A DNA stretch of 64,000 nt, from sequence record OK335775.1, one strand, 5' to 3'. The translations under genes and the position numbers were made by a program. The stretch is from Escherichia phage PSD2002. The notes beneath the pieces were generated by a model that was not told where the DNA came from, made no database searches, and saw only the letters and a program-made list of their open reading frames with translations. This document shows, in pieces, positions 2,416 through 64,000 of the stretch (within the stretch, counting starts at the first letter, position 1; the number at the start of each line of letters is the position of its first letter).

Positions 2416-4311
2416 ATGTCCGAACAATTGAATGAGGTATTTGATGGTGATATAAATTTATCTGCTGTCAATTTAAACCCTAAACTTAAAGTCCCACAGA
2501 TTTGGAATATAAAGGCTGAAGGTAACGAGAACCTTGTTGCCCGCATGGTTTCATATACTTCCGAAGGCGATGTAATTCGTCAGGTTAAGCCTGGTGACAA
2601 GTATGTTCATGTCGTTTTAATGAGCCTATCGGCTAAAGGTTCTCCTGCCGAACTCAAAGGTGGATTAGGTACCAATCCTATTTCCGCTATTCGTTCTATA
2701 TTTGATATCGTCTATGAACAGGTCAAGGCCCTTCGTATGGACGCTGTTATGTTCCGTTTTCCTACCAAGAAAATGAAAGGGCAGGAAAAAGCTATACAGA
2801 GGGTATTGGCTAAATTAATAGCCTCTAGAGCAGGCGGACAGTTTAAAGTTCTTGATGCCTTGTATCAATTCACCGGTAAGCATTCGTATGTTTTTATCTA
2901 TCGTAAAAATAAAAATATAGAATCTATAAATGGTATTCCTAATATTAATTTAGAATTGTATACTAAAGTCGAATCTGAAGTCGGTGACGTGTATGTTTCA
3001 AAGAAAACAGGCGAAGATGTTACCAAACTAGAAGCTATAGCTAAGTCCATAGACGAAATAGAAAAATCACGTTCTGATAAAACTGTTATAACCAAAACAA
3101 AGGTTTCTAAACGTGCTGCTATCAATGCTTTATATCCTACAGCAGAGCCTACAGGATTGAGTAAATTTTCGGCAGAGCACAAAAAAGCTTATGCAGATTA
3201 TTCTGCTACTAGTTCCGTTCATTCTTCTGAAGATTCTAAAGAAAGCCAAATAGCTTTAGCCAGTAATAAAATATTAAAAGACACCTCTAAAGAAATGGCA
3301 GAATATTTGGATTATATTTTTAACGGTGTTAATCCATCATTTGAAGTAGACGAGCGCAAACTTAAACTAATTGCTGATATAAAGTTTGCTTTAGAGGCAT
3401 CAGATTCTTTAGATAAATCTAATAGTGTCATAGAGGCTTTAAAATCAGGTAAATCTCATGTAGACATTCTTAGACTAGTCGCTGCGGCCCTTTTAGATGA
3501 TTCAGTTAAAGGTACTTGGGCTAGAGAATCTAAAATCAAGGAAGTAATAAAATCCTTAGTAGCAGTTTATACAAAATCTATCCAACCGTTGTTTAAGATA
3601 TCTGATAATCCTAATTTATCCAAACCTCAAGAAGAGGCAGTCAAAAAGTATACTCGTGGCGGCTACAACCATATAAACAACTTTTTGCTAGGTAAAACAG
3701 ATACCACCGATGAAATGATAAAAATGATTGGTGAGTTGGATTCTACATTTGAAAATGGTACAAAACTTCCTAAAGGAACCATAGTGTATCGTTCTCAGAT
3801 AATGCCTACCGAAATGGCTTTGAATTCTATAAAACATAAGGTGATGTATCTTCCTATTTTTGCATCAACTTCATTGGCTCCTAATATTTTCGGTGAAATG
3901 GGTCATGCTCAATCCAACTTAGACCCTGAAGCTCTTTCTAGCGATATAGATAGTAATCTTGAAGACACCATTAAAAGTGCGACCGGAAGTGCTAGAGATA
4001 CCATTAAGCTAGGGTTAATTATTAAAGGTGCTGATAAAATTAAGGTTATTGTGCCCGGTGACTTGGCTAATTGGTCTACAGAAACCGAAGTAATTCTTCC
4101 TCGTGGGGTTATGCTTAAGATTAATAAAGTATACGGTGCTTCCAAGGGACCTATGGGTTCAATTGGTAAATATGTTTTAGTGGAATGTGAAGTTGTAGCT
4201 ACCGAGCAAATCACAGAGGAAGATTCATATAGCACCGGATTCTCGTTTGGAAATTATGATAGAATTATGTATGAAGATTCTATGGAAAAATTAGCAAATT
4301 TATTTAAATAG
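2416..4311 (+). CDS. alt: Alt-like ADP-ribosyltransferase, paralog 1 (631 aa)
   Basis: RBS AAAGAGGAA; N-terminal block shared with the next two ORFs; C-terminal ART signatures VYRSQ, FASTSL, ETEVILPRG; position next to gene 30 as in T4. Confidence 0.8.
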   Translation: MSEQLNEVFDGDINLSAVNLNPKLKVPQIWNIKAEGNENLVARMVSYTSEGDVIRQVKPGDKYVHVVLMSLSAKGSPAELKGGLGTNPISAIRSIFDIVYEQVKALRMDAVMFRFPTKKMKGQEKAIQRVLAKLIASRAGGQFKVLDALYQFTGKHSYVFIYRKNKNIESINGIPNINLELYTKVESEVGDVYVSKKTGEDVTKLEAIAKSIDEIEKSRSDKTVITKTKVSKRAAINALYPTAEPTGLSKFSAEHKKAYADYSATSSVHSSEDSKESQIALASNKILKDTSKEMAEYLDYIFNGVNPSFEVDERKLKLIADIKFALEASDSLDKSNSVIEALKSGKSHVDILRLVAAALLDDSVKGTWARESKIKEVIKSLVAVYTKSIQPLFKISDNPNLSKPQEEAVKKYTRGGYNHINNFLLGKTDTTDEMIKMIGELDSTFENGTKLPKGTIVYRSQIMPTEMALNSIKHKVMYLPIFASTSLAPNIFGEMGHAQSNLDPEALSSDIDSNLEDTIKSATGSARDTIKLGLIIKGADKIKVIVPGDLANWSTETEVILPRGVMLKINKVYGASKGPMGSIGKYVLVECEVVATEQITEEDSYSTGFSFGNYDRIMYEDSMEKLANLFK

Positions 4312-4319
4312 GATAGATT

Positions 4320-6401
4320 ATGACCCAATTAAATGAAGTGTTCGAGTCCGAAGGTACACTGCCTGTTGTGAACTTGAACCCAAAACTTAAAGTACCTCAG
4401 ATTTGGAAGATTGGAGACGCGGAGTCTCAGTTAGTAGCACGTATGGTATCCTACGCTTCTGAAGGTGATGCTATTAAACAAGTTAAAATGGGTGATAAAT
4501 ATGCCCACGTTATCCTTATGAGCCTTTCAGCTAAAGGTTCGCCTGCCGAACTTAAAGGCGGCTTAGGCCCTACTCCTGTAGATGCGATTAATACTATTTT
4601 TGATGTGGTTTATGACCAAGTTAAAAAGCTTCGTATGGATGCCGTGATGTTCCGTTTCCCTACTAAGAAAATGAAAGGTCAAGGCCCTATCGTTCAACGG
4701 ATTATCCAACGTTTGGTAGCACAGAAAACCGGTGGACGTTTTAAAGTGGTTCCGGCTATGTACCAATTTACCGGTAAACATACTTACATCCTGGTAGTTC
4801 GTAAACAAGCTGATATAGAAGATATCAAAGGTATGCCTGGAATTAATGCTGAATTGTATACTAAGGTAGATTCTGATGTCGGTGAAGTTTATATTTCTAA
4901 AAAAGAAGGCGTACAGGTTACTAAAGAAACTGCTATCGCCGGTAGTATTGCTAAGGTTGAAGAACGTCGCACTGATAAAATGGTTATAACCAAGACTAAG
5001 ATTTCTCGACGTGCTATTGCAGCAAGTCAATCGTTAGAATCTTATCGTAATGAAAGTGGGCTGTTTAAGAAATATGAAGCTACTGCAGTAGATTTTAATA
5101 AACCGGCAACAGTTCCATTAATCCCTGAGGCCCAGGAAATGGTCACTAATAACAATTCTCCTGCGGCTAAAAATAAGGTTGCTAATATAGTAGCTGAAGG
5201 CACTGCTGAAGAATTGCATTACGACTATAAATTGTTCCCACTTCACGGTATTGGTGAAATCCAAGAGAAAATTAAAGAGAAAATTCTTACAGCTATCAAA
5301 AATGAACCTTTGACATCTGTTAAAGCCCTGGAAAAATATGCCTCTACCATTAATACCATTTTCGAAGAATATAAAGGCGAGTGGCTGGCTATCCATAACA
5401 GAACTCGTAAAGGCCAACCTGACGACGTCTGGAATGAATTAACCGAGTCCAAGTGGAAAGCAGCCAAGACTAAGTTCATTAAAAAACGTGTGTATAGTTT
5501 TGCTGGCGTAGGTGGTGGTATTATGGTCGATATTACTATTGCTCGTGAGGGCTCTAAATATACCCCATCACAAAAGCGCGGCATCAGAGAATATTGTGGT
5601 TCAGGATATACAGACATAAATAATCTTCTTTTAGGACGTTATAATCCCCAGAACTATGAGGTTATGAGCGAAAAAGATATCGAATCTGCAGTTAATAATT
5701 TGGATTCCGCTTTTGAAAATGGCGACCGTATACCAGAAGGCATCACAGTTTATCGTGCACAGAGTATGACTGCTCCTATATACGAAGCACTAGTTAAAAA
5801 TAAAGTGTTCTATTTCAGAAATTTTGTATCTACTTCTTTAACTCCTATAATTTTCGGACGTTTTGGTGTTACACACGCTGGTATTGGTCTTTTAGAACCG
5901 GAAGTTCGCAACGAATTGACAGTTGATAAAAATGAAGAAGGAATAACTATTAATCCTAATGAAATAAGAGCGTATAAGGAAAATCCCGATTACGTTAAGG
6001 TTCAAATAGGATGGGCCATTGATGGGGCTCATAAAGTTAATGTCGTATATCCAGGAAATCTCGGAATAGCAACTGAAGCCGAAGTTATTCTACCGCGTGG
6101 ATTAATGGTCAAAGTTAATAAAATAACAGATGCTTCTAATAATGATGGAACAACATCTAGTAATACAAAACTCATCCAAGCTGAAGTTATGACAACAGAT
6201 GAGCTTCAAGAATCTGTTGTATATGATGGTGATGTACTAATGGAAACCGGCGAGTTGGTCGTATATCAAGATGACTTCGATACTTCCGAAAGCCCCTTAT
6301 CTTTTGATTCATTTGTTAAATCTACACGGTTTGATGTACTGCCTCTTTTGGCTTCATGCATAGACCTCTATGACATCCCAGAAAAATTCATCCAAGGGTA
6401 A
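4320..6401 (+). CDS. alt: Alt-like ADP-ribosyltransferase, paralog 2 (693 aa)
   Basis: Same conserved N-terminal block; C-terminal VYRAQ, FVSTSL, EAEVILPRG; central region unrelated to paralogs 1 and 3. Confidence 0.8.
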   Translation: MTQLNEVFESEGTLPVVNLNPKLKVPQIWKIGDAESQLVARMVSYASEGDAIKQVKMGDKYAHVILMSLSAKGSPAELKGGLGPTPVDAINTIFDVVYDQVKKLRMDAVMFRFPTKKMKGQGPIVQRIIQRLVAQKTGGRFKVVPAMYQFTGKHTYILVVRKQADIEDIKGMPGINAELYTKVDSDVGEVYISKKEGVQVTKETAIAGSIAKVEERRTDKMVITKTKISRRAIAASQSLESYRNESGLFKKYEATAVDFNKPATVPLIPEAQEMVTNNNSPAAKNKVANIVAEGTAEELHYDYKLFPLHGIGEIQEKIKEKILTAIKNEPLTSVKALEKYASTINTIFEEYKGEWLAIHNRTRKGQPDDVWNELTESKWKAAKTKFIKKRVYSFAGVGGGIMVDITIAREGSKYTPSQKRGIREYCGSGYTDINNLLLGRYNPQNYEVMSEKDIESAVNNLDSAFENGDRIPEGITVYRAQSMTAPIYEALVKNKVFYFRNFVSTSLTPIIFGRFGVTHAGIGLLEPEVRNELTVDKNEEGITINPNEIRAYKENPDYVKVQIGWAIDGAHKVNVVYPGNLGIATEAEVILPRGLMVKVNKITDASNNDGTTSSNTKLIQAEVMTTDELQESVVYDGDVLMETGELVVYQDDFDTSESPLSFDSFVKSTRFDVLPLLASCIDLYDIPEKFIQG

Positions 6402-16962: not shown

Positions 16963-16990
16963 GGCCCTTCCGAAAGGTTGGGCCTTTTTT
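16963..16990 (+). terminator. rho-independent terminator GGCCCTTCCGAAAGGTTGGGCC + T6 (repeated element)
   Basis: GC stem plus T-run; near-identical copies at about 62337 and 62980. Confidence 0.6.
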
Positions 16991-16992
16991 GT

Positions 16993-17220
16993 TTAGAAAT
17001 CTTCCTCTTCCTCGTCGTCCATCGACTCCAATTCAGCTCTCTTACCAGCCAATGCATCACGCACGCTAATATCATCCGAATCACGAAGTTCGGCTTCCTT
17101 ACTACGAGTTTTGTAATACTTTTCCAATTCCTTCAGACCATCCATAGTCTGACAAGAACCAATTTTAGCCATGAAGCTTTCAATAGATGCTTCTTGAATA
17201 ACTTCTTTAAAGGTTTTCAT
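16993..17220 (-). CDS. uvsW.1: UvsW.1-like small acidic protein
   Basis: 75 aa (T4 UvsW.1 76 aa); position downstream of uvsW. Confidence 0.55.
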   Translation of the reverse strand: MKTFKEVIQEASIESFMAKIGSCQTMDGLKELEKYYKTRSKEAELRDSDDISVRDALAGKRAELESMDDEEEEDF

Positions 17221-17912
17221 AAATCCACCTGTTTCATTAAATTTCTGATTTTGTGACGAGAAAGACCCGTGGCTTCAGAAGCTTGTTTCATCGAGCCATA
17301 TTCAACACCATTTATAGTAACCTTTTTAGCTGCCGGGTTTTTAGATGGGTCTTTATATCTTTCTTTAGCTTTATCTGAAATTTTCTTAGAAGCTTCAGGG
17401 GTATGATTTTTACCATACATGCCGTTGCCGGCACCGGAATTTCTTTCAGATATAGCTTGACATTGTTCTTGCGTGTATTTATAAGGATTCGCTTTTTTAG
17501 TTGCAGATATTTTATCGCCCCATAAAATAGGTCTACCTTTAAATAAATTGCTCATATATTCTTTATGAGCTTCAGTGTGGTGCTTACCGTAAAATGGATT
17601 TCCTTCTCCAGTCTGAAGAATTGCCAATTGCCTACGTTCCCACCCATATGATTTACTAAATTGTCTTTTATGAGTCCTGGAGCTCATACCCATAGAAATA
17701 ACAGCTTTTATGAGACCGTAGTTATTTGGATAAATTTTGGCCAGTAATTTATGAGCTATAAAATGTTCTTCTGGGGTAAGGCGTACTCTATTTTCTTGAG
17801 TATCAGGCCCACCAATACACGACGGGATAATATGATGAGATTCTGTATAACCCATAGGTTTAGAAGCCTTTCGGCTTCTAATTAAATTGTCATAAATTTT
17901 TTGATAATTCAA
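17217..17912 (-). CDS. free-standing HNH homing endonuclease with NUMOD3 and NUMOD1 motifs; TTG start
   Basis: HNH motif HHIIPSCIGG...ENRVRLTPEEHFIAH; NUMOD3-like NPFYGKHHTEAHKEYMS and NGMYGKNHTPEASKKIS; C-terminal HTH; first codon reads TTG, overlapping the uvsW stop. Confidence 0.85.
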   Translation of the reverse strand: MNYQKIYDNLIRSRKASKPMGYTESHHIIPSCIGGPDTQENRVRLTPEEHFIAHKLLAKIYPNNYGLIKAVISMGMSSRTHKRQFSKSYGWERRQLAILQTGEGNPFYGKHHTEAHKEYMSNLFKGRPILWGDKISATKKANPYKYTQEQCQAISERNSGAGNGMYGKNHTPEASKKISDKAKERYKDPSKNPAAKKVTINGVEYGSMKQASEATGLSRHKIRNLMKQVDL

Positions 17913-20990: not shown

Positions 20991-20992
20991 TA

Positions 20993-21014
20993 ATGGGCCT
21001 TGCGGCCCATTTTG
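20993..21014 (+). terminator. stem-loop ATGGGCC-TTGC-GGCCCAT + T-run
   Basis: Perfect 7-bp stem with tetraloop, followed by TTTT. Confidence 0.55.
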
Positions 21015-22425: not shown

Positions 22426-22432
22426 ACGATAA

Positions 22433-22454
22433 AGGGACCTTACGGTCCCTTTTA
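22433..22454. terminator. hairpin GGGACC-TTAC-GGTCCC with flanking T-runs, between convergent rnlB and gp24 paralog
   Basis: Perfect 6-bp stem; TTTTATTTTT downstream on +. Confidence 0.5.
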
Positions 22455-45433: not shown

Positions 45434-45476
45434 AGGTATGCCTCATTATTGATATACTGTATTTATTAAACCCCGA

Positions 45477-45494
45477 AAGGGCCTTGCGGCCCTT
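45477..45494. terminator. hairpin AAGGGCC-TTGC-GGCCCTT in gp8-gp9 spacer
   Basis: Perfect 7-bp stem with tetraloop; weak T-run only. Confidence 0.35.
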
Positions 45495-45495
45495 A

Positions 45496-46500
45496 TTAGA
45501 ATTCGAAGATAATGTTAATTTCTTCTGTTTGGTCCATGGAACGAATAACCGGAGGACGGTTTTCCATATAAATCATTTCACCGGAATGGCGGGAGAGGTC
45601 TATAACATCATAGTACTCTTTTTCGGCTTTAATGATCGGATCGGATGGGTGAGCTTTAGCTTCTAATGGATTAGAGATTATCGAAAGCTGTCTAAATCCT
45701 TTGTTACCAGGAAGACTAAATTCAGGGAAGTAAACTGAATCTAAGAATGCTTTAAAACGAATGGTATTGCCTTTAATACGATAAATCAATCCATAATCGT
45801 CTTGCTGCCAAGTAAGGTTATTCTCGTATCCCCAACGTTCTGGGTCTTCAGCAATTTCTTCCGGCCATGGAACCACAATATATTCATTAGTGCAACGGTT
45901 GATACTTACATCAGGTGGAATCTCATACAAATATTCCCAGAGATATCCATCACCTGTATCAACCATACCTTCCGTATCGCCTTGTCCTGCAGGGGCTTTA
46001 ACCGATTGTACGTTTGAAGTCCATTTACCACCAAGTTTAATACACTCAGTTTTATTATCAAGGGACAAAATAGAACATGTACCCGATTCAGGAATATCTA
46101 CACAACGATAAACCATCCACCCAGCGCCGACATCAGTACGGTTTTGCGGCTGGCTGTTCGCCACTACAATTTCACCAATCTGGAAAGTAAATGGGTTAGG
46201 ATAAGAGGTATCGCCCCAGTCTTTGCGCGGGACAACACAATCCAACATGCTCTTATAAACCTTAACACAACCCATCATGTTTGTCCAGACGTCTTCTACG
46301 CCCTCAGAATCATCTACAGGATATGGTGGTGCAAAACCCGGGTCATTTTCGTTATCGGCCCATGGTCGGGCCCTTCCGAAAGATACATACATGGTGTTCT
46401 GGTCTTCACCATCACCTATTGTTCTGTAAAAGTTGTACATTTTTTCCGTTCTAAATTTTGAAGTAACAATAGAACGATAAACTACTGTAGAATTAATCAT
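45496..46500 (-). CDS. 8: baseplate wedge gp8
   Basis: 334 aa (T4 gp8 334 aa); synteny. Confidence 0.75.
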   Translation of the reverse strand: MINSTVVYRSIVTSKFRTEKMYNFYRTIGDGEDQNTMYVSFGRARPWADNENDPGFAPPYPVDDSEGVEDVWTNMMGCVKVYKSMLDCVVPRKDWGDTSYPNPFTFQIGEIVVANSQPQNRTDVGAGWMVYRCVDIPESGTCSILSLDNKTECIKLGGKWTSNVQSVKAPAGQGDTEGMVDTGDGYLWEYLYEIPPDVSINRCTNEYIVVPWPEEIAEDPERWGYENNLTWQQDDYGLIYRIKGNTIRFKAFLDSVYFPEFSLPGNKGFRQLSIISNPLEAKAHPSDPIIKAEKEYYDVIDLSRHSGEMIYMENRPPVIRSMDQTEEINIIFEF

Positions 46501-59480: not shown

Positions 59481-59810
59481 ATGAAAACATATAACGAATT
59501 TGTACAAACTGAAGCAATTAATGAAGTAGCCATCCCTAAACCGGCTAAAGCTGACGGTACTGAGTACTACCATATTGAAACATCTTTTGATGCAGCTTCA
59601 GATATGGCTAACGGGCTTGGTGATTTCATCCGTCAAGCTAAGTCCGACCTGGCTAAATTTACAAAGACCCTTGATAAAGAGCAAAAGAAACCTTTCTCGG
59701 ATCTGGCTAAAAAACTGGACGCGTTAAATGACAAGGTCTTTAAAGAAGTTTACCACGGTATGATTGGTCTTACCCGTGAATTCAATGCTGAAGTTAAAAA
59801 ACTTCCCTAA
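59481..59810 (+). CDS. internal-protein-like gene 1 with capsid-targeting N-terminus (MKTYNEFVQTE...)
   Basis: N-terminus matches the T4 internal-protein capsid-targeting consensus MKTYQEFIAE; gp21-type (L/I)-x-E sites; position adjacent to 57B as T4 ipI. Confidence 0.7.
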   Translation: MKTYNEFVQTEAINEVAIPKPAKADGTEYYHIETSFDAASDMANGLGDFIRQAKSDLAKFTKTLDKEQKKPFSDLAKKLDALNDKVFKEVYHGMIGLTREFNAEVKKLP

Positions 59811-59820
59811 GTACAGATAA

Positions 59821-59841
59821 GGAGCCACAAAGCTCCTTTTT
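59821..59841 (+). terminator. stem-loop GGAGC-CACAAA-GCTCC + T5
   Basis: 5-bp GC-rich stem followed by TTTTT. Confidence 0.5.
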
Positions 59842-59858
59842 GTATCTAAACAAAAGGT

Positions 59859-59889
59859 GTTTACTTTCCTGGATAGCCGTGATACTATA
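59859..59889 (+). promoter_or_regulatory. early promoter cassette (GTTTAC ... TGATACTATAGCCCTATCAAAACAA)
   Basis: 32-nt core identical to the copy at 60443-60472. Confidence 0.55.
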
Positions 59890-59925
59890 GCCCTATCAAA
59901 ACAAACTAACCAAACGGAAATCAAA

Positions 59926-60150
59926 ATGAAAACTTATCAAGAATTTATTACCGAAGCTAAAAGACATGAAGATGAACTGCCAATTGTTACAAAAACCTTT
60001 GATGGCACACTGGCTGATTTTAAAAAAGTCCCTAGTGATAAGCTTGCTAAATTGACTGGCTCTATCAATGAAAAAGGTGGCAAGGTCACATTTTCTGCTC
60101 AAGGCACTGCCAATCTTAAAAAACTTTTGAAAGCCGCAGGCGTAGAATAA
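59926..60150 (+). CDS. internal-protein-like gene 2 (MKTYQEFITEAK...)
   Basis: Track ORF 59857..60150 begins at GTG inside the promoter; ATG at 59926 gives the MKTYQEF capsid-targeting N-terminus. Confidence 0.65.
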   Translation: MKTYQEFITEAKRHEDELPIVTKTFDGTLADFKKVPSDKLAKLTGSINEKGGKVTFSAQGTANLKKLLKAAGVE

Positions 60151-60151
60151 A

Positions 60152-60424
60152 ATGAAATCATACCAAGAATTTATCGCTGAATCTATTCTTAATGAAGAAG
60201 TAAAAATTAACAAATCTGTTAAGACCATGATTGATAATATAAATCATCTCTATAACATCGATTTGACTAATCACGTAACTTTAGGCAATAAGCGAAACTT
60301 TTTTGTATTTGATACTTCAGAACTTGACCAGAATCAAATTAACAATATTGAACGTTTTGCTAATGAAAAAGGGCTGCGCCACGAGACAGCCGGTTATAAA
60401 AAGTATGCAATTTATTTAAAATAA
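60152..60424 (+). CDS. internal-protein-like gene 3 (MKSYQEFIAESILNEE...)
   Basis: Capsid-targeting-like N-terminus with I-A-E and L-N-E gp21-type sites. Confidence 0.65.
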   Translation: MKSYQEFIAESILNEEVKINKSVKTMIDNINHLYNIDLTNHVTLGNKRNFFVFDTSELDQNQINNIERFANEKGLRHETAGYKKYAIYLK

Positions 60425-60426
60425 TT

Positions 60427-60457
60427 GTTTACAACGGGCTTTAGCCGTGATACTATA
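60427..60457 (+). promoter_or_regulatory. early promoter cassette (GTTTACA ... TGATACTATAGCCCTATCAAAACAA)
   Basis: Duplicate of the cassette at 59859-59903. Confidence 0.55.
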
Positions 60458-60492
60458 GCCCTATCAAAACAAATGAGTGAATGGAGAATAAA

Positions 60493-61351: not shown

Positions 61352-61525
61352 ACCAAATTTGACCAGACTATTCCTAAAAATAGTAATATGCTTTAAGAGT
61401 AATGTGTTATTATTACTCTATCATTAATACCCTCTATTACCAAAGGTTCTTCCCTCAAAGAACCTTTCATAATAGACAAGGTCTATTAATCAAACTTACT
61501 TTACTTAATTTTATTTGAGGTGTTT

Positions 61526-61792
61526 ATGTTAGTATTAAAATTAGCTTTTTATGACCCGGCAACCAAGACAACAACAACCAAACGTTGTTCTATTTCATAT
61601 GAATGTCAATTTGGTGAAGTTGAGACCGACGGCGGGCCCTTTATGGCAATTGCCGATAGCACATTCGCTAAACCAAAAATAATTCCACTAGTTAACGCTG
61701 CGGCTTATCTGGTTGCTCCTGAAGAAATGACTTATCACACAATTCAGCACATGGCTAAAGATGATAATGCTCCTGCTGGATTTGTAGTTTAA
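61526..61792 (+). CDS. hypothetical protein (88 aa)
   Basis: Track ORF 61520..61792 begins at GTG; ATG at 61526 follows GAGG. Confidence 0.5.
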   Translation: MLVLKLAFYDPATKTTTTKRCSISYECQFGEVETDGGPFMAIADSTFAKPKIIPLVNAAAYLVAPEEMTYHTIQHMAKDDNAPAGFVV

Positions 61793-61797
61793 ATTAA

Positions 61798-61874
61798 GGC
61801 CCTGTAGCTCAATGGTTAGCAGCAGTCCCCTCATAAGGGAAAGGTTACCAGTTCAAATCTGGTCCGGGTCACCA
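61798..61874 (+). tRNA. tRNA with CAU anticodon (Ile2 or Met), non-canonical D-stem
   Basis: Hand fold: acceptor GGCCCTG/CCGGGTC (one mismatch, one G-U), anticodon loop CTCATAA, T-arm ACCAG-TTCAAAT-CTGGT, encoded CCA. Confidence 0.6.
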
Positions 61875-61879
61875 ACTAT

Positions 61880-61954
61880 GTCCCGCTGGTGTAATGGATA
61901 GCATACGATCCTTCTAAGTTTGCGGTCCTGGTTCGATCCCAGGGCGGGATACCA
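61880..61954 (+). tRNA. tRNA-Arg (anticodon UCU)
   Basis: Hand fold: acceptor GTCCCGC/GCGGGAT, D-loop AATGGATA, anticodon loop CTTCTAA, T-arm CCTGG-TTCGATC-CCAGG, encoded CCA; T4 also encodes a tRNA-Arg(UCU). Confidence 0.75.
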
Positions 61955-62335
61955 AATGAAGACTATTATATAGTCAAGCCGTCGTATGAAGACTGATTAC
62001 CAGCATTCACCGGCGCAACAAACAAGAAACCGGGTCGCTACCGGTAAGTCGTCGGACTGATGTTCCCTGAGTAAGGACTGGCATTAACAAATCTTTACGA
62101 TCTGTTAACGTTCCCTTACATCACAGCAGAAACGGCGCACCGAATTATCGATTCGAGGAAATATCTTTGCCGTAAGCCGAGTAGCGTTTTTGACGGAACG
62201 TTCGGATATGGTCGAGATATGGCCTTTTAAAAATATTGAGTGGCGTCAACTACTTAATAACCGGGTTCGAATCCCGGCGTTTCGTACAAACACTTGCCTA
62301 GCAGGTGGAACCCCGACAAGGTTACCCTAGGTTAA
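61955..62335 (+). ncRNA. candidate stable small RNA(s) with tRNA-like T-arm (position of T4 rnaC/rnaD); boundaries uncertain
   Basis: About 380 nt with no ORF over 24 codons, immediately after tRNA-Arg and ending at a terminator; contains CCGGG-TTCGAAT-CCCGG at 62261-62277 and a possible 7-bp acceptor pairing 62194-62200 with 62278-62284. Confidence 0.3.
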
Positions 62336-62336
62336 A

Positions 62337-62364
62337 GGCCCTTCCGAAAGGTTGGGCTTTTTTT
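62337..62364 (+). terminator. terminator GGCCCTTCCGAAAGGTTGGGC + T7 (variant of the repeated element)
   Basis: GC stem plus T-run; copy of the motif at 16963 and 62980. Confidence 0.55.
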
Positions 62365-62365
62365 G

Positions 62366-62373
62366 TATAAATA
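62366..62373 (+). promoter_or_regulatory. late promoter TATAAATA upstream of internal-protein-like gene 4
   Basis: Exact TATAAATA 26 nt before the ATG at 62400. Confidence 0.5.
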
Positions 62374-62399
62374 TGTAGTAAACTAACTTAGGAAATAAT

Positions 62400-62864
62400 A
62401 TGAAAACTTACAATGAATTTTTGACTGAACAATCTAGTTCAGATGTAAAAGCCGCTGCTATTGCAGCAATTCAAGCAGGTAAATATTCTTACAAAGACGC
62501 CTCTGATGAAGAACGTTTCCGTTTTATTAAAGATTTTAAAGCCGAAGGTTTTACTAATGCTAATACTGTTAGCCGAGTTTTTAAAAGCCTAGCTGCATCA
62601 GGTGAATTGTTCCAGAAAGCTACAGGTAAAGCACCTGCGTCAAAAGCGGACCCTAAAGCCGCTCAAGAAAAAAATATCGCCAAAGGAATTATTTCTAAGT
62701 ATGAAGCAATTCTTAAAGAGCTTTTAGTAATCAAAACAGAAGGCCAGAAACTGGCACGAGCACATAGCTTCAAAGATAATCCACATGCTCACGACTTAGA
62801 GTATGTTGAAGATATTCAGAAAATCATCAAAGACCGTATCTGGTCTGCTAAACAAATCAAATAA
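62400..62864 (+). CDS. internal-protein-like gene 4 (MKTYNEFLTEQ...)
   Basis: Capsid-targeting-like N-terminus with L-T-E gp21-type site; late promoter. Confidence 0.65.
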   Translation: MKTYNEFLTEQSSSDVKAAAIAAIQAGKYSYKDASDEERFRFIKDFKAEGFTNANTVSRVFKSLAASGELFQKATGKAPASKADPKAAQEKNIAKGIISKYEAILKELLVIKTEGQKLARAHSFKDNPHAHDLEYVEDIQKIIKDRIWSAKQIK

Positions 62865-62866
62865 CG

Positions 62867-62888
62867 AAAGCCCCAGATGGGGCTTTTT
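62867..62888 (+). terminator. stem-loop AGCCCC-AGAT-GGGGCT + T5
   Basis: Perfect 6-bp stem followed by TTTTT directly after the stop codon. Confidence 0.6.
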
Positions 62889-62979
62889 GGTTAACTTAGA
62901 GAAATATATGAAACTTTTAAAATAAAGCTATGTTAGCCTTCCACATAAACCCATTCCGGTTCTACAAGAACTGATTCTA

Positions 62980-63007
62980 GGCCCTTCCGAAAGGTTGGGC
63001 CTTTTTT
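62980..63007 (+). terminator. terminator GGCCCTTCCGAAAGGTTGGGCC + T6 (repeated element)
   Basis: Identical to the element at 16963. Confidence 0.6.
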
Positions 63008-63030
63008 GTTTCTAAAAAGTTTAAAAAGTT

Positions 63031-63060
63031 GTTTACACCTCCTTTAAACATGATACTATA
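63031..63060 (+). promoter_or_regulatory. early promoter cassette (GTTTACA ... TGATACTATAGACCTATCAAAACAA)
   Basis: Third copy of the conserved early-promoter core. Confidence 0.55.
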
Positions 63061-63094
63061 GACCTATCAAAACAACAGAGTGAAGGAGAGTAAA

Positions 63095-63358
63095 ATGGAT
63101 AATTATGGTGAATTGTTTAATTTCTTTATGAAATGCGTTCCGGAAGAATTTGGTGCTACAGTTAACGATATTAAAGTTATCGGTCCTGAACACCCGGTGT
63201 ATGAAACCTATGCAGTAATGGGTAATGAAGATGGACAGTGGTATACAATTAAAGTTGTGATTAATATGTTCTCAGCTGAAGGTTACGCCAAATCGTCTAC
63301 CAAAGTTTACCATGGTAATGATTTTGATGCAGAAAATTATTTCAATAATATGAAATAA
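63095..63358 (+). CDS. hypothetical protein (87 aa)
   Basis: Track ORF 63080..63358 begins at GTG; ATG at 63095 follows GAAGGAGAG. Confidence 0.5.
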   Translation: MDNYGELFNFFMKCVPEEFGATVNDIKVIGPEHPVYETYAVMGNEDGQWYTIKVVINMFSAEGYAKSSTKVYHGNDFDAENYFNNMK

Positions 63359-63361
63359 AAC

Positions 63362-63397
63362 GTTTACATGGGCTCATGATTAAGATATTATGAGCCC
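63362..63397 (+). promoter_or_regulatory. early promoter (GTTTACA, 17-bp spacer, TATTAT) with 8-bp inverted repeat across spacer and -10
   Basis: GGGCTCAT at 63370-63377 pairs with ATGAGCCC at 63390-63397. Confidence 0.45.
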
Positions 63398-63416
63398 ATA
63401 ATTTGAGGAGAACATA

Positions 63417-63815
63417 ATGAATATCGAAGATAAAGAAATGCAAGAGTTGTATAATTCATTAACACCTGAACAACAAAAATATGCCAAAGAACTAGAGAAA
63501 GCTCTTACTTTCAACTTGGCAAAAACTGATTGGGCCGCGATGTATGAAGAAAAAACTAGATTAGAAATTGAAGCTGCTGAGAGAAATGAATGGGTTGTCG
63601 AAACCAAGATTTCTGATGGTGGTTGCTCTGTTGAGGTGTCAGCTGTAGTTAAAGGTACCCATGGCGAAAAATCATGGGGCTGGCATAATGAAGCAAACAA
63701 ATGTATTGTTCTCTCAACGTCAAAAACTTATGGGCAAAGGGCTCCTGTATCCAAAGCTATTATTAAGCAAGCTCAATGGGAAGCCAATGAAATTTGCCTC
63801 GCAAAAATGAAATAA
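63417..63815 (+). CDS. hypothetical protein (132 aa)
   Basis: Track ORF with ATG and GAGGAG RBS; no recognisable motif. Confidence 0.5.
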   Translation: MNIEDKEMQELYNSLTPEQQKYAKELEKALTFNLAKTDWAAMYEEKTRLEIEAAERNEWVVETKISDGGCSVEVSAVVKGTHGEKSWGWHNEANKCIVLSTSKTYGQRAPVSKAIIKQAQWEANEICLAKMK

Positions 63816-63819
63816 AAAT

Positions 63820-63855
63820 GTTTACAACCCTCAGAGGACAGGGTATAATGTCCTC
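63820..63855 (+). promoter_or_regulatory. early promoter (GTTTACA, 17-bp spacer, TATAAT) with 7-bp inverted repeat flanking the -10
   Basis: GAGGACA at 63834-63840 pairs with TGTCCTC at 63849-63855. Confidence 0.45.
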
Positions 63856-63891
63856 ATGGATTATAAATCTTAATCAACTGAAGGAAATACT

Positions 63892-64000
63892 ATGAACACT
63901 TTAAAGAAAATCGTTGAATTCATCCGTTCTAAACTGGGTACCGCAATGACTCAGAACCTGTCAATCGAAGACCAATACACCAAAGCGGCTTCTACCCTGA
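63892..64000 (+). CDS. hypothetical protein, 3'-truncated at window edge
   Basis: ATG at 63892 after GAAGGAAA; frame open to the end of the window ([16 protein letters not shown]...). Confidence 0.4.

Follow-up and report, generated by a model that had tools for sequence, protein, structure and literature searches.

Stem-loops lying just upstream of early promoters (PeSLs) have been described as recombination linkers, with crossovers sequenced inside them (PMC2839356, PMC4122927), and the promoter that accompanies them in T-even phages has the consensus TTTACW-N17-TAYWAT (PMC4122927). The homology needed for T4 recombination is said to be less than 50 bp (PMC2839356). The polymorphic internal protein (IP) loci form a second described system, in which the set and number of small genes with a conserved N-terminal capsid-targeting leader vary among close relatives between conserved regulatory borders (Repoila et al. 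1994, as summarised in PMC2839356, PMC4122927 and PMC3012670). Here we describe a hairpin, the 22-mer GGCCCTTCCGAAAGGTTGGGCC, in a 64,000-nt stretch (the window) of Escherichia phage PSD2002 (OK335775.1), a T4-type coliphage of the JS98/WG01/QL01 group, genus Dhakavirus. We consider it probable that this hairpin is a terminator reused as a cassette border, whose copies recombine homologously to lose or gain cassettes. For two of its three copies, comparison with relatives supports a double role, as terminator and as cassette border and recombination linker. The case adds a clean example to the module shuffling known from T4-like phages, and none of the papers searched describes this hairpin element for the JS98 group.

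The three copies all lie on the + strand: copy A at 16963-16984 and copy C at 62980-63001, both without mismatches, and copy B at 62337-62358 with one (the last C is replaced by T). A T-run (T6-T7) follows each of them, and the window holds no further match to GGCCCTTCCGAAAGGTTGGGCC at up to 3 mismatches, with 0 matches in 100 shuffles. Copies A and C are identical over 32 nt (GGCCCTTCCGAAAGGTTGGGCCTTTTTTGTTT), beyond which their flanks are unrelated, and an alignment of the three neighbourhoods gives a shared unit of ~30 nt, close to the 28 nt reported in a preliminary description of this DNA. The mismatch search and the shuffles bear out the three positions named there, the middle one as a variant, and its promoters are also found where it placed them: a late promoter, TATAAATA, directly adjoins the T-run of copy B, and an early-promoter cassette, with GTTTAC-N17-TACTAT at 63031-63059 after an AT-rich stretch, follows copy C. 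A scan of both strands of the window for the same architecture (5 bp, a 2x2 loop, 2 bp and a loop, then a T-run) returned these three sites only. Under strict terminator criteria (at least 5 T immediately after a hairpin of -9 kcal/mol or better), the 64 kb contain five sites, three of which belong to this hairpin family; the relaxed terminator census was too permissive for quantitative use. The other compact terminators of the window all differ in sequence, unlike the hairpin copies. A high-copy dispersed repeat is ruled out by the count of at most three copies per genome among the 60 phage records listed, so that the motif, although present at separate places, is low-copy and not dispersed genome-wide; the exact 22-mer occurs in just 14 stretches of IMG/VR. 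An origin in the host is likewise ruled out: in 5,426 genomes, no E. coli chromosome matched a 42-mer taken around the element, and the sole matches were at 83% on 13 plasmids with E = 2. A second, looser family of terminator-like hairpins was seen at 20992-21013, 22432-22453 and 45476-45497, with 77-86% identity and the consensus AA(T/G/A)GG(G/A)CCTT(G/A)CGG(C/T)CC(A/C/T)T...

Set beside the PeSLs, copy C carries all of their sequence features, namely a stem-loop at 62980-63001, an AT-rich stretch at 63002-63030, an early promoter that starts with GTTTAC at 63031 and agrees with the consensus TTTACW-N17-TAYWAT, a Shine-Dalgarno sequence and an ATG, and on these features it fits, together with this promoter, the PeSL definition as published. 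Copies B and C lie in the interval from rnaC to e.8, likewise a hyperplastic region where the element bounds insertions and deletions between close relatives, and the proposed mechanism, homologous recombination between short conserved regulatory linkers, is common to both systems. The two differ in what is repeated: here it is a GC-rich hairpin with its T-run, ~30 nt long and present in at most three copies per genome, whereas PeSLs are described as longer, promoter-centred and present in dozens of copies. The stem-loops associated with T-even internal proteins are weak, AT-rich and variable (PMC2839356), whereas the hairpin described here is GC-rich and identical between copies. Copy B, moreover, is joined to a late promoter, whereas the papers give early and middle versions and the term 'late promoter' is absent from the 2010 text (PMC2839356), and copy A has no promoter at all.

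The claim of recombination stands on the flanks of the hairpin, not on the identity of its copies. Across 61400-64000 the window is 95-98% identical to the JS98/WG01/QL01 phages, and the region is judged mosaic because contiguous coverage was found in just 12 of 770 matching records. Among relatives, the rnaC-e.8 interval is arranged in at least eight different ways (Table 1). From the window alone we built a predicted 90-mer consisting of the left flank of copy B, one hairpin and the right flank of copy C, with 643 bp removed. This 90-mer is contiguous in the Dhakaviruses ABTNLS3 (100% coverage, 97.8% identity) and FB (98%, 98.9%), in which base-level alignment shows rnaC and its spacer, a single hairpin, the AT-rich region, the early promoter and e.8. 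Because the recombinant was constructed from a single genome before it turned up in two more, this is a very clean natural case for the PeSL model. Phages C6 and CLBP2, in turn, correspond to JS98 minus the segment between its two hairpin-late-promoter repeats (the hairpin plus TATAAATA forms a ~37-nt repeat with two copies in JS98). They match JS98 copy 1 leftward through the hairpin, T6 and GTATAAATA, and then JS98 copy 2 rightward; the switch between C6 and JS98 falls between the T-run and the end of TATAAATA, within a direct repeat of 36-37 nt. T4 and T2, which have a single hairpin and lack a gene there, correspond to Lutter minus one cassette. PeSL recombination between flanking copies is described as yielding mini-circles or deletions, and natural alleles that differ by a deletion or insertion broken inside the repeat are seen here. 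Among 42 hairpin instances the combinations of left and right flank are reticulate (a1, a2, a4, a6, b2, b3, c4): the rnaC spacer (left flank 'a') is joined to at least four right flanks, and the PL-leader-B right flank and the T4-type spacer are each joined to two left flanks. On the sequences compared, this is the pattern expected of a recombination linker, in line with the PeSL model. The suggestion in the preliminary description that the dispersed copies are candidate recombination sites can be kept for 62337 and 62980, whose flanks, far from being conserved in all relatives, are reshuffled with breakpoints inside the repeat; it has to be dropped for 16963, whose flanks are constant.

We propose that the terminator would stop counter-clockwise transcription at two old T-even positions, after uvsY.-2 and after the tRNA/rnaD/rnaC unit, and that the same terminator has probably been reused in the variable rnaC-e.8 interval as a border of small gene cassettes. 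The first border copy would end the stable-RNA operon and adjoin the late promoter that drives an internal-protein-like gene, and the next copy would end the cassette or cassettes, followed by the early promoter of e.8. With a copy and a promoter at both borders, each cassette would therefore be transcriptionally insulated and timed. In the DNA the copies would act as direct repeats of ~30-37 bp, between which homologous exchange, presumably by the phage's own recombination system, could either delete or insert the intervening DNA. Such a process would be the linker-mediated modular shuffling proposed for PeSL cassettes, and would extend the PeSL model to a junction of terminator and late promoter. 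It would also explain, through exact cassette joints, part of the mosaicism among the therapeutic coliphages of the JS98 group, and the hairpin borders may offer natural, transcriptionally insulated landing sites for engineering.

By structure, position and covariation, the element is a predicted intrinsic (Rho-independent) terminator. In the predicted fold of the GGCCCTTCCGAAAGGTTGGGCC RNA, a 2x2 UU/UU internal loop separates a 5-bp G-C clamp from two C-G pairs capped by a GAAA tetraloop, and a U-tract comes after the hairpin. For the sequence of copy A this fold has -15.1 kcal/mol (z = -3.2 against shuffles), accounts for 99% of the ensemble and is kept in the native context; in copy B the closing G-C pair becomes G-U and is extended by A-U pairs (-13.8 kcal/mol). 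Each copy lies just past a 3' end on the transcribed strand, that of uvsY.-2, of rnaC or of cassette ORFs (open reading frames). Two of these sites are, as the comparison across genera indicates, old orthologous terminator positions. At the uvsY.-2 junction an orthologous hairpin is present in T4, JS10, UPEC07, LF82-7 and X20; across five genera this site keeps the same shape, with a stem of GGCCC/GGGCC or GCCCC/GGGGC and loops of GAAA, TTTTT, TTTT, AAAAA and TTAT. T4 has GGCCCTTCC-TTTTT-GGTTGGGCC-T6 after uvsY.-2 and GCCCCGACC-GAAA-GGTTGGGGC-T5 after rnaC, and copy B has its positional ortholog in the hairpin that follows rnaC in T4 and T2. Stem pair 2 alternates between G-C and C-G across genera at both the uvsY.-2 and the rnaC site, a compensatory change. 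Covarying pairs were counted directly from the sequences and from IMG/VR instances; in the latter the scaffold G-S-CCC-TT-CC-NNNN-GG-TT-GGG-S-C occurs 102 times, with the free S/S positions complementary in 101 of the 102 and a T-rich tail (at least 5 T in the next 8 nt) in 98. Equivalent sites, including the Lutter counterpart of copy B, carry the label 'terminator' from independent annotators. This annotation, the stable hairpin with its T-run, the 3'-end positions and the compensatory stem change agree with the terminator-type element of the preliminary description. The element resembles canonical intrinsic terminators in its GC-rich hairpin, stable GNRA tetraloop and U-tract at operon 3' ends, including the T4 terminator after rnaC, and differs from them in the conserved tandem U.U mismatch of its stem and in the three near-identical copies within one genome.

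Several observations weigh against a terminator that is also a recombination linker. The evidence for termination and for recombination is wholly comparative, and one stem pair covaries, the remaining pairs being invariant and hence uninformative. Some cassette boundaries at the rnaC-e.8 locus lie away from the hairpin: the 154-aa gene of E33 is bounded, relative to MX01, by near-repeats of the Shine-Dalgarno/ATG type, and the ~490-bp deletion of the window is internal to a gene, so the hairpin is one of several joints. Copy A takes part in no rearrangement, with uvsY.-2 on its left and the uvsW.1 stop on its right in every relative examined. Finally, GGCCCTTCCGAAAGGTTGGGCC also occurs in viral contigs of 60% GC, inside a longer stem with a T-rich tail, and the identity of the copies could partly reflect a favoured design rather than copying.

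That last point leads to an account in which the copies are terminators and nothing more, each cassette having arrived with its own terminator through illegitimate recombination (moron-style accretion) and the likeness among copies being convergence on a favoured design. The T5-like Salmonella phage UTK0009 has, at ~698-719 of its stretch, a 22-mer identical to the RB69/fDHCT2 type (GCCCCTTCCGAAAGGTTGGGGC), followed by TTTTCTTTT; in a T7-like Aeromonas phage, a version with a perfect stem follows the capsid gene, and the 102 IMG/VR instances of the TT/TT-loop scaffold come from contigs of 35-62% GC. When the internal positions were left free, giving an unbiased sample of 69 distinct scaffold sequences, TT/TT was the third commonest internal combination (7 of the 69, after TG/TG with 9 and TG/CG with 8) and made up 7 of the 11 double mismatches. 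Phage terminators thus commonly combine a GC clamp with a weak U.U or G.U middle, and identity alone is weak evidence of copying. The flanks tell against convergence. In three independent comparisons, the junction in single-copy phages pairs one copy's left flank with the other's right flank, without a base gained or lost; the identity reaches past the hairpin into the T-run and GT(TT) or TATAAATA; and the reticulate flank combinations are at odds with a terminator-only role. The loops at uvsY.-2 also vary freely between genera, so that GAAA is not forced there by selection. We therefore regard convergence as an unlikely explanation and retain the terminator that serves as a linker. Salmonella phage SHP1, considered as an unrelated carrier, was ruled out as a partial Dhakavirus record. 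The weak-middle design may be favoured for keeping the RNA stable while avoiding a perfect palindrome in the DNA.

As an imperfect palindrome whose unpaired bases are conserved, the hairpin could also be read as the target of a dedicated structure- or sequence-specific recombination, as in integron attC sites, in which case general homology would be irrelevant. The 2x2 internal loop stays unpaired across genera and is not repaired, and the form of one gene plus a 3' imperfect palindrome per mobile unit resembles integron cassettes, an analogy that Arbiol et al. draw for PeSL cassettes; the same authors speculate on a DNA-binding protein that targets PeSL stems (PMC2839356). GGGC/GCCC inverted repeats have been noted at T4 deletion endpoints (Mosig 1998, cited by Arbiol et al., PMC2839356), and the hairpin here has GCCC...GGGC arms. 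Against this, the locus holds small ORFs only, none of them integrase-sized, and no integrase or recombinase was seen in it. The element is 22 nt long and each cassette has its own promoter, unlike integron arrays, and attC sites are much longer imperfect palindromes with paired core sites, served by a tyrosine-recombinase integrase. The C6/JS98 crossover maps beyond the hairpin, to plain homology that lies between the T-run and the TATAAATA end, and further joints at this locus are found in Shine-Dalgarno/ATG segments or in AT-rich parts of promoters, as plain homology would give; weak-middle hairpins are, besides, a general terminator design in unrelated phages. A dedicated site-specific system is on this evidence very improbable. 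Scarcely more credible is a composite picture in which the rnaC-e.8 interval is an integron-like array of cassettes, each with a late promoter, an injected anti-defence gene and a 3' hairpin, exchanged between phages at the hairpin, with the unpaired T.T marking a structure-specific site and ectopic conversion keeping the identity at uvsY.-2. Homologous exchange between hairpin repeats remains the reading that we prefer for copies B and C.

Copy A is a separate case. A crossover between it and the others would remove ~45 kb with essential genes. Concerted evolution of the uvsY.-2 and rnaC-locus terminators, 45 kb apart, through ectopic gene conversion would let the 16963 copy recombine, though only without crossover, and we hold this to be a possibility worth keeping, though we lean against it. 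The uvsY.-2 and rnaC hairpins differ in stem, internal loop and loop within T4 and within Mosigvirus. In Dhakavirus both sites are identical over 30-32 nt, with a uvsY.-2-type stem and an rnaC-type loop, which suggests homogenisation by gene conversion, on few positions. However, ~3-5 positions only are informative, a few substitutions in a narrow design space could give the same pattern, and no intermediate alleles were found.

Table 1. Features of the window and, in the lower rows, arrangement of the rnaC-e.8 interval in phages (H, hairpin; PL, late promoter; Pe, early promoter).
Feature	Position	Strand	Description
Hairpin copy A, GGCCCTTCCGAAAGGTTGGGCC + TTTTTTGT	16963..16992	+	Predicted terminator ending the 26-25-uvsY-uvsY.-2 unit, convergent with uvsW.1
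tRNA-Met	61798-61874		Upstream of rnaD homolog
tRNA-Arg	61880-61954		Upstream of rnaD homolog
rnaD homolog (T4 species 2 stable RNA)	62022..62141	+	Alignment to annotated T4 rnaD
rnaC homolog (T4 species 1 stable RNA)	62148..62286	+	Alignment to annotated T4 rnaC
Conserved 50-nt spacer, rnaC to hairpin	62287..62336	+	Constant left flank ('a') of cassette locus; retained where rnaC is deleted
Hairpin copy B, GGCCCTTCCGAAAGGTTGGGCT + T-run	62337..62365	+	Predicted terminator of tRNA/rnaD/rnaC unit
T4-type late promoter, TATAAATA	62366..62373	+	Annotated 'promoter' at the same place in Lutter
Cassette gene, 154-aa ORF	62400..62864	+	Starts MKTYNEFLTE; phrog_2280
Second, unrelated terminator hairpin, AAAGCCCCAGATGGGGCTTT	62867..62886	+	Ends the 154-aa ORF (predicted)
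DUF7338 membrane-protein gene remnant	62908..62979	+	Start stub MKLLK* 62908-62925 plus 3' end 62926-62979
Hairpin copy C + TTTTTTGT	62980..63009	+	Stem-loop part of PeSL-type cassette
AT-rich region, early promoter, conserved initial transcribed region, e.8 Shine-Dalgarno	63010..63094	+	Promoter part of PeSL-type cassette
e.8 homolog (MDNYGELF...)	63095..63358	+	Constant right border of cassette locus
T4, T2			H - spacer - Pe - e.8 (284 nt, no gene)
Lutter			H - PL - gene - H - spacer - Pe
MX01			H - PL - DUF7338 membrane gene - H - Pe
JS98, AnYang			H - PL - membrane gene - H - PL - 205-aa leader-bearing gene - other terminator - Pe
C6, CLBP2			H - PL - 205-aa gene - Pe
E33			H - PL - 154-aa gene - other terminator - membrane gene - H - Pe
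Window, fDHCT2			E33 arrangement, membrane gene internally deleted (~490 bp)
ABTNLS3, FB			H - Pe - e.8

The genes enclosed by the hairpins appear to be fast-changing and probably injected genes of host adaptation in T4-type phages. The 154-aa ORF after copy B is termed internal-protein-like because of its capsid-targeting leader and its late promoter, and its product is putatively so; an N-terminus of the MKTYQEF type is the capsid-targeting leader of T-even internal proteins (PMC3012670). Three ORFs at 59481-60424 (59481, 59926, 60152) match internal-protein families of PHROGs and start MKTYNEF, MKTYQEF and MKSYQEF; T4 IPI starts MKTFKEF, and M1, K2 and F7 are invariant when the 154-aa ORF is aligned with T4 IPI and the internal-protein homologs of the window. 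In T-even internal proteins such a leader ends in a prohead-protease L/I-x-E cleavage site, and T4 internal proteins block host restriction systems. The family of the 154-aa ORF, phrog_2280, is of 'unknown function', and its homologs are present or absent at the rnaC-e.8 locus among relatives. No Pfam match was found, and the ORF was not assigned to a known internal-protein family (phrog_2280 was the best); its N-terminus weakly matches phrog_7857, an 'internal virion protein'. As at the polymorphic IP loci, the window thus has leader-bearing genes, three of them at the classical IPI position (59481-60424) and one at 62400. The rnaC-e.8 interval differs in being neither of the classical IP loci, and its phrog_2280 genes, whose packaging is putative, are not annotated as internal proteins. 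ORFs with a leader of the form MKTY(N/A)EFL(T/N)E, all of phrog_2280 and without a Pfam match, were seen between rnaC and e.8, outside both classical T-even IP loci, not only in the window (62400-62864) but also at 2987-3604 of the JS98 stretch and at 3457-3897 and 4000-4563 of the stretches of two other relatives. These ORFs are candidates for unrecognised injected proteins.

The DUF7338 gene is full length (184 aa) in E33, MX01 and JS98. The window carries an internal deletion of ~490 bp relative to E33, in common with fDHCT2, and the 3' remnant that is left forms left flank 'b' of copy C. Beyond this copy, the Shine-Dalgarno sequence of e.8 is GAAGGAGAG, followed by the ATG at 63095. The promoter part of the PeSL-type cassette has three copies in the 64-kb window (family D6), and it is itself a repeated cassette family: three early promoters (59871-59913, 60439-60481 and 63042-63084) have in common a 43-nt block at 81-86% identity that spans the -10 region and the initial transcribed sequence GATACTATAG(C/A)CCTATCAAAACAA. 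A different hairpin, at 59819-59838, precedes the promoter at 59871. In the e.8 early promoter (63020-63059), the -35 region and spacer are of the JS98 type, GTTTACACCTCCTTTAAAC, within surroundings typical of E33/MX01, which suggests a short conversion patch or a crossover in the AT-rich region.

The + strand of the window corresponds to the T4 counter-clockwise strand. In the 62-63 kb region the order is gp3, gp1, 57A, 57B, the three internal-protein genes, ORFs like trna.4/.3/.2, tRNA-Met, tRNA-Arg, the rnaD and rnaC homologs, the 50-nt spacer and the hairpin. An Rfam scan of the window returned the two tRNAs only, and no known RNA family for the hairpin. The rnaC homolog is present in the window, E33, fDHCT2, ABTNLS3 and FB, and is cleanly missing (~145 nt) from JS98, MX01 and AnYang, which retain rnaD, the 50-nt spacer and the hairpin. 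With rnaC retained in some Dhakaviruses and lost in others, it is therefore dispensable and polymorphic within one genus. The spacer at 62287-62336 has its own small hairpin, CACTTGC-CTA-GCAGGTG (the T4 counterpart is CACTTGCC-TT-GGCAGGTG), which is kept even where rnaC is missing and may be a processing signal.

Around copy A, 26, 25, uvsY and uvsY.-2 follow one another on the + strand and converge with uvsW.1, a homing endonuclease gene and uvsW on the minus strand. A bidirectional terminator at 16963, which would also stop uvsW.1 transcripts, is unsupported: the hairpin of the opposite strand has -12.6 kcal/mol but no U-tract follows it. The product of uvsW.1 (16993-17220, minus strand) starts MKTFKEVIQE, similar to the T4 IPI leader MKTFKEF, a likeness that is probably coincidence. 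The homing-endonuclease-like ORF between uvsW.1 and uvsW (17217-17912, minus strand) encodes 231 aa and is not found at that position in T4 or JS10.

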